DNA from: Deltaproteobacteria bacterium | GTDB lineage: Bacteria > Myxococcota_A > Polyangia > Haliangiales > Haliangiaceae | Reading direction: 5' to 3' | NCBI GenBank assembly: GCA_031385555.1 | Contig: JANNBP010000135.1 | Coordinates: 8,974 to 72,973 of the forward strand | Length of the DNA: 64,000 nucleotides | Shown here: positions 34,947-38,532 of the stretch, one piece after another | Layout: each line of letters opens with the position of its first letter | Numbering within the stretch: position 1 is the first letter of the stretch | Translations under genes and position numbers: made by a program | Notes under the pieces: generated by a model | What the model was told of the DNA's origin: nothing | The model's input: only the letters and a program-made list of their open reading frames with translations | Database searches by the model: none

Positions 34947-35822
34947 TCACTGCAGGCTGCCGAGTGCGGCGAGTCTGGCCTCGATCCGATCGAGCTCGGC
35001 GGACGGGAACCGCATCGCGAGGTAGTGATAGCGACCGGCCTCGAGCTGAAACAGGAAGCGCTGGCCCCACGGCAAGCCGTCGACGTGGGCATGGATGCGG
35101 CCGCTGCGGTCGTAGCCGATCGACACGGCACGCGATCCGTCCACGAACGTCTGATGGGACGTCATGTCCGGGAGGTACCAGTCGGCGGGGCGTGCAGGCT
35201 CCCCCTCCGCCCACAGCGTGCTGGTGTCGTAGTGCGCGTCGACCTCGGCGACGAGTTGCGCGACCAGCGCGCGTGCGGTTGGCACGTCGTGATCTCCCGC
35301 GTGCAGCGTGAACGGCCGCGAGACCTCGAGGAGGTCGAGCGGCGAGAGGTCGATGTCGCCGATCGTCGCGACCTCCGCACCCCACGCGTCGATCGGCACG
35401 ACGGCCGCGCGATCGCGATCGAAGACGCGTACCGCGTTGACGCCGCCGCCTTCGGGCCGTCCGGTGATCGTGCCGGAGCTGATCATGATCAGCTGGACGC
35501 CGCGGAGGCCGTCGCGCTGCTGGTGGATCGTCAGCGTCTCGTCGTTCGGCTCGTTCACGTTCCACACGTGATCGAGGAAGCTGCCCTCGCTGATCCGGTT
35601 GACCGTGAACGTGGGGGTGCCGCTCTTGCGCGCGACGAGCCAGTCCGCACGCATGCCGAGCATCGCGTCCGCCAGCTGCGCCGCACCGTGCAGCGTGAGC
35701 TTGCGCGGTGGCGTCCCTACCGGCTGTCGCGCCACGGGAAGGGCGTTCCACGCGGTGCGGATCGCGACGTGATCTCGCGCGTCGAGCCAGCGTTCGAGCA
35801 GCTGTGGATCGACGGCCATCAA
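34947..35822 (-). CDS. Hypothetical protein (290 aa), last gene of the MscS-phosphoesterase operon.
   Basis: Clean high-GC3 ORF. Its start overlaps the upstream small-ORF stop (ATGA). No motif recognised. Confidence 0.45.
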   Translation of the reverse strand: MMAVDPQLLERWLDARDHVAIRTAWNALPVARQPVGTPPRKLTLHGAAQLADAMLGMRADWLVARKSGTPTFTVNRISEGSFLDHVWNVNEPNDETLTIHQQRDGLRGVQLIMISSGTITGRPEGGGVNAVRVFDRDRAAVVPIDAWGAEVATIGDIDLSPLDLLEVSRPFTLHAGDHDVPTARALVAQLVAEVDAHYDTSTLWAEGEPARPADWYLPDMTSHQTFVDGSRAVSIGYDRSGRIHAHVDGLPWGQRFLFQLEAGRYHYLAMRFPSAELDRIEARLAALGSLQ

Positions 35823-36049
35823 GCCCTCGCGATGACGAGGGGGCGTGGTGCGAGGTCCTCGACGCCCGCCGCGAGCTGCTCGACCGCGTATTTCGGCAAG
35901 CCGCGAAACAACAGATAGCCGTCGCCGAGCCGCGACTTGACCAGCCGTCCGGTCTCGCGATCGCGGAGCCCGAGGGCACCATCGTTGCGGTCGGCGGTGT
36001 ACGCGATCGCATGCTGGGTGCCGTCGTCGAGCACGGTGGTCGCGCGCAC
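35819..36049 (-). CDS. Small hypothetical protein (76 aa), translationally coupled to the downstream gene.
   Basis: ATG-initiated ORF about 27 nt after the phosphoesterase stop. ATGA overlap with the next gene. Confidence 0.3.
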   Translation of the reverse strand: MRATTVLDDGTQHAIAYTADRNDGALGLRDRETGRLVKSRLGDGYLLFRGLPKYAVEQLAAGVEDLAPRPLVIARA

Positions 36050-36076
36050 GTGGGTCGCGGTGTCGATCGCGACCTG

Positions 36077-37012
36077 CTAGCCGCGCTCGCTCCGGCTGTA
36101 GCTGTTATCGGCGAGCACGAGCTCGAACGTGCCGTCGCGCAGGATCGCGGGGCAGTCCCCCGACGGCGTGTGCCCGACGACGACGCGCGAGATGCCTTCA
36201 CCGCGCAACCGCTGGACGATCTCCGCGGGTGGGAGATGCGGATTGCCCAGGTCGTCGGTCGGGCGCGCGTAGACCACGCTCGCCTGGTTGAGCTTGTCGG
36301 GGCCTTGCGCTTGATACGCGATCAGCGCATCGGGCCGGACGCCCCGGGCGAACGTCTCCAGCTCGCCGCGATAGAACCGATCGAGGGCCCCGAGCCAGGC
36401 GTCGAGCGACGGGCTGTGCGCGTAGGCCGTGATCCAGCGGTCTTCACACCGCGCCGGCGTCGCGAGGAAGTTCTCCGGCGTGACGCCGCCGTGAACGAAC
36501 AGCGTGTCGCCGGCGCGATAGCCGAGCTGGCACGCTTCGAGGTACGCGCGCAGCTCGCCTCCGGCCGCGAGATCCGCCAGGTACGTCTCGACGACATCCA
36601 GCTCGGAGGAGGGCAGGCCCTGCTCGCCGAGCTCGGTGACGCGATGCTCGAACGCCTGCTTCGCCCCCATCGTGTTGGTGAACGTCCAGCGCAGCAGCTC
36701 GGGGAGCGCGAGGCCGGCGGGCGCCCGGCGGTGAGGCGTGCCACCGAGCTCGGTGACGAGGCGGAGCTTGTTGATGTCGCGATTGCCGGCGAGCAGCACC
36801 ACGCGATCGCCGTAGCGTTGCTTGGCACGCAGGAGCAGCCCGACGAGGCGGCGCGCGTGGGCTCCGCGATCCACCGCATCGCCACCGAACACGAACGTCA
36901 CGCCCGCCGCGAGCTCGAGCTCGCCCTCGACGAGCCGCACGTGCGGGTTGCCGTCGAGAAACGACGACAGCTTGTCCCAGCGGCCTTCGAGATCGGTGAC
37001 GTAGACGATCAT
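36077..37012 (-). CDS. Calcineurin-like metallophosphoesterase, PPP/ApaH-like with degenerate motifs.
   Basis: GDAVDRG motif, GNRD (in place of GNHE), downstream HGG and GHTP. The first motif is TDLEG in place of GDxHG. The ATG (MIVYVTDLEG) overlaps the MscS stop (ATGA). Confidence 0.75.
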   Translation of the reverse strand: MIVYVTDLEGRWDKLSSFLDGNPHVRLVEGELELAAGVTFVFGGDAVDRGAHARRLVGLLLRAKQRYGDRVVLLAGNRDINKLRLVTELGGTPHRRAPAGLALPELLRWTFTNTMGAKQAFEHRVTELGEQGLPSSELDVVETYLADLAAGGELRAYLEACQLGYRAGDTLFVHGGVTPENFLATPARCEDRWITAYAHSPSLDAWLGALDRFYRGELETFARGVRPDALIAYQAQGPDKLNQASVVYARPTDDLGNPHLPPAEIVQRLRGEGISRVVVGHTPSGDCPAILRDGTFELVLADNSYSRSERG

Positions 37013-38532
37013 GCGAGCCGGAAGTACGACTTGATGCGGCCGAGCAACCGCTTCTTGTTCTCGTCGCGGCGCAGCGACGCGGCCTCCGCCGAGAGGCCGT
37101 CGCGCTCCTGCTCGAGGGCGTGCTGGCGATCGGACAGGATCGCGCTGAAGCTCTCGGCGAGCGCGGGCTTGGCTTCGAGCAAGCTGCGGATCAACGTGTG
37201 ATCGACCTCGTGGACGTGCGCGTCCTTGGTCGCGATGCACGTGGCCGTGCGTGCCTCGCCGGTCATCAACGATTGCTCGCCGAGGATGTCGCCCTGGTGC
37301 AGCGTCGCGACCTGGCGCTCGGCACCATCGACCGACAGCACCACGCCGATCTCGCCGTCGGCGATCAGGAACAGCGAGTCGCCCGGCGCGCCCTGGCGCA
37401 CCAGCACCTCGCCACGCGAGAATAGCCGGCGCTTCATGCCGCGCGCGAGCAGATCGACATCGTCGCCGTCGAGCTTCGCGAACAGCTCGACCTTCGCGAG
37501 CGCATCGCGGCGGCGGTCCTGCGCACGATCCTCGTCGGCGCGCGCGGACTCCTCGGTGATCTGCGTCATCTGCACGGTGCGCGTCGGGAACGGGATCTCG
37601 AGGTTCGCGCGTTGCGCTGCGTACCAGATGCGCGTGCGCACGTTGCTCTCGATCAGGATCTCCTGGCCGAAATCGCGGATCCAGTACAGCACCGCGTAGG
37701 TGACGGCGCTGTCGCCGAACGACTTCATGATCGCGATCGGGGTGGGCGTCTCGAGCACGCCATCACAGCCGCGCAGCGCCTCCTCGAGCACCTTCTTGAC
37801 GTCGTTCGGCGGGTGCCGGTACGCGAAGCCGACCTCGCACCACATGCGGTGGCGATCCGTGGGCCGCGAGTAGTTGAGCACCGCGTTCTGCATGAAGTAC
37901 GCGTTCGGGAACGTCAGCGTGTCGTCGTCGCGGGTGACGATCGTGGTGGCGCGGAAGCTGATCTTCTCGATCCGGCCGATCCGCTCGTCGATCTTGATCC
38001 AGTCGCCGATCACGATCGTGCGATCGAGCTGGAGCGATAGCCCGGCGAACATGTTCGCGATCGGTTGCTGCAGCGCGAGACCGATCACCGCGGTGAGCAC
38101 CGCCGACGTGGTGACCAGCGAGACCAAGTTCGCGCCGCTCTGCTGGAGGATCGTCATCAGCGCGATGACGAACGCGATGAACAGCAGGATGTCGCGCAAG
38201 ATCGTCGGGAACTGGAAGAACCGCGAGACGACGACATCGAACAGCATCTTGCCGACCACGCCGGTCATCCCGGCGGCGAGCGAGATCGCGGCGGCGAGCT
38301 TGAGCCCGACCACCACGCTCGGGTAATCGGCCATCTCGACGGGCACCGCGAGCCCGCGCAGCACGACCGAGGCGAGCAAGAAGATGATCGGGAGCCGGCC
38401 GCGATCCTGGCGATCGGAGGGCAGCAGCCGGCGCGCGAACAACGACGCCAGGACCGTCGCGATCGCGAGTGCGACCGCGGCCCACGAGATATCGACGTCA
38501 GCGAGCTCCCCCACGCGCCGCCATCCTATCAA
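37009..38532 (-). CDS. MscS-family mechanosensitive channel fused to a C-terminal cyclic-nucleotide-binding (cNMP) domain.
   Basis: N-terminal TM helices and MscS beta-domain (IANMFAGLSLQLDRTIVIGDWIKID). C-terminal CAP-family cNMP domain (FSRGEVLVRQGAPGDSLFLIADGEIGV...GEQSLMTGEARTATCIA). Confidence 0.85.
   Translation of the reverse strand: MIGWRRVGELADVDISWAAVALAIATVLASLFARRLLPSDRQDRGRLPIIFLLASVVLRGLAVPVEMADYPSVVVGLKLAAAISLAAGMTGVVGKMLFDVVVSRFFQFPTILRDILLFIAFVIALMTILQQSGANLVSLVTTSAVLTAVIGLALQQPIANMFAGLSLQLDRTIVIGDWIKIDERIGRIEKISFRATTIVTRDDDTLTFPNAYFMQNAVLNYSRPTDRHRMWCEVGFAYRHPPNDVKKVLEEALRGCDGVLETPTPIAIMKSFGDSAVTYAVLYWIRDFGQEILIESNVRTRIWYAAQRANLEIPFPTRTVQMTQITEESARADEDRAQDRRRDALAKVELFAKLDGDDVDLLARGMKRRLFSRGEVLVRQGAPGDSLFLIADGEIGVVLSVDGAERQVATLHQGDILGEQSLMTGEARTATCIATKDAHVHEVDHTLIRSLLEAKPALAESFSAILSDRQHALEQERDGLSAEAASLRRDENKKRLLGRIKSYFRLA

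Follow-up and report, generated by a model that had tools for sequence, protein, structure and literature searches.

What does a channel with a cyclic-nucleotide-binding domain do next to a phosphoesterase, and do the two form a self-contained nucleotide signalling module? This question is raised by a gene cluster located on the minus strand, at positions 34947-38532, of a stretch of 64,000 nucleotides from contig JANNBP010000135.1 of an uncultured Myxococcota genome (assembly GCA_031385555.1; this whole stretch is hereafter called the window). A previous sequence-only reading described there a four-gene operon, encoding in this order an MscS-family channel with a C-terminal cyclic nucleoside monophosphate (cNMP)-binding domain, a calcineurin-like phosphoesterase, a product of 76 amino acids (aa) and a product of 290 aa, and suggested a self-contained module of cyclic or linear nucleotide signalling, in which the phosphoesterase could hydrolyse a cNMP or Ap4A. 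The present analysis revealed that the cluster is a translationally coupled transcription unit of three genes, encoding the channel, the phosphoesterase and the 290-aa protein. It supports the co-expression of the channel and of the phosphoesterase but not a cNMP-degrading module.

The cluster contains three genes and not four because the 76-aa open reading frame (ORF) is the C-terminus of the phosphoesterase, cut off by a single-base TAG. The full-length phosphoesterase gene, delimited by read-through translation and by alignments of homologues, spans positions 35819-37012 of the minus strand (397 codons plus the stop). Its translation in a single frame gives 311 codons, one TAG (36077-36079) and 85 sense codons that include the entire 76-aa ORF, i.e., the last 76 codons of the gene (35819-36049), which belong to the C-terminal beta domain. 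The 76-aa ORF is thus in frame with the phosphoesterase, from which it is separated by the TAG and nine codons, and the G+C content of its third codon positions (GC3) is 0.87 in its own frame versus 0.75 and 0.49 in the two others. Across the ORFs of the cluster, GC3 ranges from 0.87 to 0.93, as in real genes, and the G+C content of the surrounding genome DNA is 66-71%.

Homologues give the same picture. The phosphoesterase is encoded by 80 species-level genomes, extended to 86 loci or lineages in a wider set, whose relatedness was assessed by a neighbour-joining tree. Most of the homologues (best 120 of the 940 found) have 377-437 aa, and a length of 311 aa was found only for the product of the window. 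Their alignments continue across the TAG without any break, with many invariant residues further on; the 76-aa ORF itself aligns to their C-termini, where 17 positions are invariant in an alignment of 13 sequences, and the column of the TAG is a serine in 78 of the 86 family members. Furthermore, an intact 397-aa protein (P0157), which differs from the read-through product of the window only at codon 312 (Ser312), is encoded in five independent metagenome assemblies (L081-L085). These are 99.65-99.99% identical to the window at the nucleotide level over positions 30819-42000 and therefore represent in essence the same strain. The variant base is 36078: the window has an A there (minus strand; T when read on the plus strand), giving TAG, versus a C in all five other assemblies, giving TCG (Ser). 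In one of them (L081), this base is the sole mismatch to the window over 7,925 bp. The TAG at Ser312, specific to this assembly, results either from a nonsense allele at the strain level or from an error in the consensus. A separate 76-aa gene was ruled out by the shared frame, the alignment to homologues and the intact gene of the five other assemblies, and programmed read-through or recoding at the TAG by the plain TCG found in assemblies of the same strain. In practice, one base had turned a single gene of 397 codons into two ORFs and three genes into a "four-gene operon". The strain was present in at least five samples (SRR20217212, SRR22198259, ERZ28573559, ERZ28573539 and ERZ27314311).

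The two junctions between the three genes are both overlapping, as had been proposed, and only the first one has the announced ATGA form. Direct reading shows an ATGA (37009-37012, minus strand) in which the stop of the channel gene overlaps the start of the phosphoesterase gene. The junction between the phosphoesterase gene and the third gene is a TGATG with a 1-nt overlap (35817-35821), which becomes a TTGA if the third gene starts at the alternative TTG (35822) and not at the ATG (35819). Rfam gave no match to any cis-regulatory RNA between positions 34000 and 40000, and the scan of the locus for promoters and terminators found nothing beyond the shuffled expectation.

The first gene (37009-38532, minus strand) encodes the channel, for which profile searches agree with the domain content previously announced. 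Its Pfam domains are MS_channel_2nd (aa 157-223; 62.6 bits, E = 3.8e-17), MS_channel_3rd (aa 232-313; 42.7 bits, E = 8.1e-11) and cNMP_binding (aa 369-453; 68.7 bits versus a cut-off of 27.5, E = 4.2e-19), all three exceeding their cut-offs; the MS_channel_1st score (15.2) is under its cut-off (23.1). The protein has 507 aa if translated from the TTG at 38532 and 501 aa from the GTG at 38514, which is the start called in relatives. Inspection of the sequence predicts five transmembrane helices, and the binding domain is followed by a long C-terminal helix. The phosphate-binding cassette of this domain, GEQSLMTGEARTAT (aa 418-431; 37240-37281, minus strand), is intact and includes the Gly-Glu and Arg-Thr-Ala residues by which CAP/PKA-type domains make contact with the cyclic phosphate and the ribose. 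The pattern GE.SL.TGE.R[TA]AT is kept in all eight orthologues of the channel and in a paralogue from L052; orthologues with 64-92% identity were found in L001, L002, L017 and L091-L097. A metagenome scan using the channel protein as a query retrieved four loci only. The channel matches the NCBIfam equivalogs of MscS (PRK10334, 60.9 versus 321) and MscK (PRK11281, 81.5 versus 991) over part of their length and with scores that fall short of the cut-offs.

As judged from these domains, the channel is a member of the MscS superfamily and of the bCNG type, i.e., it combines an MscS core and a C-terminal CAP-type cNMP-binding domain (Caldwell 2010; Malcolm 2012; reviewed in PMC13591265). It shares with the bCNG channels the MscS pore helix, the beta and C-terminal domains and a CAP-family cNMP-binding domain with an intact cassette. 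It differs from them by its origin, since it comes from a Myxococcota whereas the family has been described as mostly cyanobacterial (PMC13591265), and by its genetic context, since it is the only bCNG-type gene that we found coupled to a phosphoesterase gene; its gating by cNMPs is a prediction. A 2026 review states that neither the physiological role of bCNG channels nor the way in which cyclic nucleotides affect their gating is known (PMC13591265). The channel presumably responds to cAMP or cGMP produced by cyclases encoded elsewhere.

The second gene encodes a protein made of a catalytic domain (aa 1 to about 311) and of a beta-rich C-terminal domain of about 85 aa (aa ~313-397). That it is a calcineurin-like phosphoesterase with a GDxVDRG and otherwise degenerate motifs, as the sequence-only reading stated, was borne out by the Pfam domain Metallophos (PF00149, cut-off 21.5; the 311-aa product scores 35.4 bits and the intact P0157 34.1) and by its motifs. 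Motifs I-III (36776-36997, minus strand) read TDLEG (36983-36997; D7 and E9), GGDAVDRG (36863-36886; D45, D48 and R49) and GNRD (36776-36787; N77, R78 and D79), and motifs IV-VI (36098-36496, minus strand) read VHGG (36485-36496; H174), GHTPSGDCP (36149-36175; H281) and ADNSY (36098-36112; D302). All these eleven residues are invariant in the 86 loci. Since all six metal-ligand positions of the PPP clade are filled (D7, E9, D45, N77, H174 and H281), we infer that the phosphoesterase is probably an active enzyme.

A sequence search against solved structures matched only PPP protein phosphatases, over motifs II-III (about 46 residues), namely PP2A (E = 1e-4), PP1, Shelph and Rhilph. In the alignment with PP2A, GDAVDRG pairs with GDYVDRG and GNRD with GNHE, so that Arg78 faces the histidine of GNHE. 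The AlphaFold model of P0002, a protein 93% identical to the enzyme of the window, has a pLDDT (predicted local distance difference test score) of 95.9 and a PPP-type fold. In structure comparisons, this model scores about 15-16 with calcineurin, PP5, Rhilph2, WipA, PP1 and CthPnkp and 12.9 with the lambda phosphatase, and low with Rv0805 (7.0), GpdQ (7.0) and MPPED2 (6.4); the ranking given by Foldseek agrees. The sequence and the model thus place the phosphoesterase in the PPP clade, nearest to Shelph, and not among class-III phosphodiesterases (PDEs). The latter (CpdA, Icc, Rv0805) share with it the metallophosphoesterase superfamily and a binuclear-metal fold, but they are not its closest structural neighbours and their GNH[E/D] and GHxH motifs are absent, being replaced by GNRD and GHTP. 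Motifs and fold (including the score of only 7.0 with Rv0805) therefore rule out a class-III cNMP PDE, and the proposal of a cNMP hydrolase is not supported. The NCBIfam score likewise rules out the ApaH equivalog (PRK00166; 11.4 bits versus a cut-off of 176). A clustering with protein phosphatases, which had been named beforehand as evidence against a nucleotide hydrolase, was only partly found: the enzyme groups with protein phosphatases, but ApaH is also nearby.

Compared with its relatives in the clade, the enzyme displays several peculiarities. It shares with Shelph (cold-active protein-tyrosine phosphatase, PDB 1v73/2z72) the GDxxDRG motif and the histidines of HGG and GH, as well as helices inserted between motifs III and IV. 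It differs from Shelph by: (i) its motif I, which is DxEG and not GDxHG, (ii) its motif III, which is GNRD and not GNHE and lacks the general-acid histidine, (iii) an ADNS at the position of (I/L/V)D(S/T)G, and (iv) the additional beta-rich domain formed by its last 85 aa or so. Its motifs I and III also differ from those of ApaH, than which it is about 130 aa longer. With the eukaryotic-type PPP phosphatases (PP1, PP2A, calcineurin, PP5, PPEF/RDGC), the likeness runs from GDxVDRG through GN(H/R)(E/D), but it covers only about 46 residues, and two catalytic positions are changed (His to Glu and His to Arg). PPEF/RDGC phosphatases have one more trait in common with some distant relatives of the enzyme, which carry EF-hands.

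These peculiarities are not restricted to the window. By its motifs, the enzyme belongs to a family that is both large and uncharacterised, whose invariant signature is DxEG / GDxxDRG / GNRD / HGG / GH. A profile search over 1.84 billion representatives retrieved 2,260 clusters at 50% identity, 601 of them with E <= 1e-30, and active-site residues were inspected in the best 150 family clusters. Among these distant representatives, Glu9 is found in 134/134 and Arg78 in 136/138, and H174, H281 and D302 are invariant. The clade of the window reads LADNSY at the position of (I/L/V)D(S/T)G, a motif of bacterial PPPs (Andreeva & Kutuzov 2004, cited in PMC2887360); the residue that follows the invariant Asp302 is Asn in 67 and Thr (as in ADTSYS) in 52 of the 142 distant representatives, and the Gly of the motif is absent. 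Among 36 long members of the family, fusions were observed with EF-hand (n = 4), cytidylyltransferase-like (n = 2), inosine-uridine nucleoside hydrolase (n = 1) and MFS transporter (n = 1) domains; they are hints about function only. The literature yielded no paper on the DxEG/GNRD family or describing the GNRD motif.

Is the coupling of the channel and the enzyme conserved? A co-conservation of the cluster in relatives was verified for the pair within one narrow branch (9 of the 86 lineages), and the third gene occurs in four lineages. In the set of species-level genomes, the channel gene is directly upstream of the enzyme gene in three (L001, L002 and L017) and the third gene is present in two. 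The pair was also found in further close relatives (L091, L092, L095, L096 and L097), and all eight related loci that carry it retain a stop/start overlap (ATGA, GTGA or TGATG). In the neighbour-joining tree, the channel-linked enzymes fall into a single sub-branch, apart from the basal L017, and those of the sister clade (L003-L014) are unlinked. Within the branch, the flanks are also syntenic (upstream lipoprotein, Lactamase_B, RNase D and DUF1501 pair). In L017, whose enzyme and channel are only 60% and 64% identical to those of the window, synteny is reduced to the upstream lipoprotein and the pair, the downstream order being gone, and the overlap is still kept. The conservation of gene order does not go past these close relatives, the pair being confined to one branch of the enzyme tree. 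Clustering of the ORFs of the 80 loci did not reveal any recurrent partner of the enzyme across Myxococcota, its neighbourhoods being variable; the commonest neighbour family is that of Ser/Thr kinases (14 loci, at variable positions), which we regard as background in kinase-rich genomes. The coupling is therefore old within the branch and consistent with co-expression, but it provides no independent evidence for a common pathway. We found no paper linking a metallophosphoesterase with an MscS or a cNMP-binding channel.

The third gene is the 290-aa ORF previously noticed, which is indeed present at positions 34947-35819 (minus strand). Its product (P0158) is cytoplasmic and has 35 homologues, and it has no match in Pfam, NCBIfam, PADLOC or PHROGs. 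Invariant Ser, His or Cys are absent from its family, and no catalytic set is evident among the invariant residues. L091, which is the closest relative, L095, L096 and L017 all lack the gene at this exact position. Elsewhere, its homologues, which in one case form a tandem pair, are found apart from both the enzyme and the channel. It is a dispensable accessory gene, whose product has no informative homology. Its TGA (34947-34949, minus strand) is separated by 1 nt from the stop of a convergent Lactamase_B gene (ending at 34945, plus strand), leaving no intergenic room for a terminator; in relatives devoid of the third gene, the distance between the phosphoesterase stop and the Lactamase_B stop is 3-8 nt (L091 and L095) or about 190 nt (L096). 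In L084, an N run within the third gene leads to separate calls of 90 aa and 203 aa. In L089 (4916-6951), the distant homologue P0148 comes just after its own 362-aa paralogue, with which it overlaps by 4 nt and shares WLxARD and HGLPWGH motifs, indicating tandem duplicates in this family.

Taken as a whole, we tentatively favour, at a little less than even chances, the reading in which the second gene encodes a phosphatase co-expressed with the channel. The enzyme would be a cytoplasmic binuclear metallohydrolase of 397 aa from the PPP clade, which also includes protein phosphatases, Shelph and ApaH. We infer that it would most likely act, like Shelph, on a phosphoprotein or another phosphomonoester and not as a 3',5'-cNMP PDE, and that it may, in this lineage, target the channel or the pathway of the channel. 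The EF-hand fusions recall the PPEF/RDGC phosphatases and count for this reading. Several points weigh against it: the substrate assigned to DxEG/GNRD enzymes is a guess; the mechanism of PPPs suggests that the replacement of the general-acid His by an Arg disfavours phosphoserine and phosphothreonine, the leaving groups of which are poor and need protonation, and that Arg78 would favour good anionic leaving groups such as phosphoanhydrides; the cytidylyltransferase-like (2/36) and nucleoside hydrolase (1/36) fusions hint at nucleotide chemistry; no MscS neighbour is found beside the enzyme in 77 of the 80 species-level loci; and the conservation of the pair may reflect relatedness and not function, the flanking genes being syntenic too. 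This last point leads to the reading that the channel and the enzyme are independent and only held together by the block synteny of a young clade, in which the lipoprotein, Lactamase_B, RNase D and DUF1501 pair keep their order in the same relatives. The free-standing state of the enzyme gene in all other Myxococcota examined, within variable neighbourhoods, and the lack of a channel neighbour in the sister clade argue in the same direction. However, the overlap has survived in L017 despite the loss of the downstream synteny, and the third gene was lost at least three times from the block whereas the pair was never split within the clade. A purely historical adjacency is considered unlikely.

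Other readings give the enzyme a nucleotide substrate. It could be a phosphoanhydride hydrolase resembling ApaH or ALPH, acting on Np4N, on a capped or NAD/ADP-ribose-type nucleotide or on a nucleoside polyphosphate; Arg78 would then stabilise the anionic phosphate leaving group and the operon would join alarmone turnover to a nucleotide-sensing channel. The replacement of the general-acid His by Arg in 136 of the 138 family representatives, the fusions to cytidylyltransferase-like (n = 2) and inosine-uridine nucleoside hydrolase (n = 1) domains and the genetic coupling to a nucleotide-binding channel in this clade are consistent with this possibility. Nevertheless, the ApaH score is far below its cut-off, the sequence matches are PP2A and PP1 and not ApaH, the few fusions might be due to faulty gene calls on metagenome contigs, and we know of no CAP-type domain that binds dinucleoside polyphosphates; on balance, such an activity is possible but rather doubtful. 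The self-contained module initially proposed, in which the phosphoesterase would hydrolyse the cNMP gating the channel so that sensing and removal are co-translated, could explain why the stop/start overlap is conserved in nine lineages, and at least one FHA-GAF-cyclase gene exists in the genome, at a distance of 26 kb. Some metallophosphoesterases, the class-III PDEs CpdA and Rv0805, do hydrolyse cNMPs. However, the motifs of these PDEs are replaced in the enzyme, which is unlinked to any cNMP-binding gene in 77/80 loci, and to our knowledge no PPP-clade enzyme is a physiological 3',5'-cNMP PDE; this proposal is thus quite improbable. We give similarly little credence to the idea that DxEG/GNRD enzymes are a new class of nucleotide-signal hydrolases, with Arg for the general-acid His, and that the enzyme of this branch, co-translated with the bCNG channel, removes or produces the nucleotide sensed by the latter. 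A role in anti-phage signalling, in a system like Pycsar or CBASS whose effector would be the cNMP-binding membrane protein, is suggested by the match of the channel to PADLOC models of Pycsar effectors (PycTIR, 1.2e-11), but these matches are limited to the generic cNMP-binding domain. No cyclase (PycC) is adjacent, the phosphoesterase and the third gene have no PADLOC match, the PHROGs search on the proteins of the cluster gave only a marginal NinI-like phosphatase match (E = 0.006), and the cluster lies in a stable syntenic chromosomal block and not in a variable island. The PADLOC result and the lack of an adjacent cyclase led us to rule out a defence system, whose probability is negligible.

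Whatever the substrate, the coupled and conserved partner may offer a testable handle on bCNG channels, which have no known role or partners (PMC13591265). This partner belongs to a large family of the PPP clade in which two catalytic His are replaced, one universally and the other almost universally, and the substrate of DxEG/GNRD enzymes would show how a PPP active site functions without its general acid. Myxobacteria have numerous Ser/Thr kinases and few known phosphatases (PMC2887360), a short list that the enzyme might extend. If DxEG/GNRD enzymes did form a new class of nucleotide-signal hydrolases and acted on the nucleotide of the channel, this would be the first case of a bacterial cyclic-nucleotide-binding channel genetically wired to an enzyme that turns over its ligand.

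Besides the cluster, several genes of the window deserve mention. The FHA-GAF-cyclase had been placed at 7039-8661; its three domains were confirmed (Guanylate_cyc, E = 1.7e-23; FHA, E = 3.7e-18; GAF, E = 8.8e-15), but the longest ORF starts at 8781 (7039-8781, minus strand). Divergently from the channel gene, an ORF of the plus strand (38666-39751) encodes a putative lipoprotein of 361 aa with a signal-like N-terminal segment followed by a Cys, which has no family assignment in Pfam or PHROGs; among the neighbours of the channel gene, it is the one whose synteny persists most, being kept even in L017. Further upstream, a 131-aa ORF (40348-40743, plus strand) encodes two zinc-ribbon-like repeats (CPRCG...W(H/G)...WGC..C) and a C-terminal hydrophobic helix; it is syntenic upstream of the cluster in L091, L095 and L097, and a faint match to Lar_restr_allev was obtained for the L081 homologue only. 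Downstream of the cluster, a 736-aa protein is encoded at 30479-32689 (plus strand), and in the relatives L095-L097 the next gene encodes a DUF1501 protein that carries a TAT signal; this pair is syntenic with the RNase D (32634-33836) and Lactamase_B genes.

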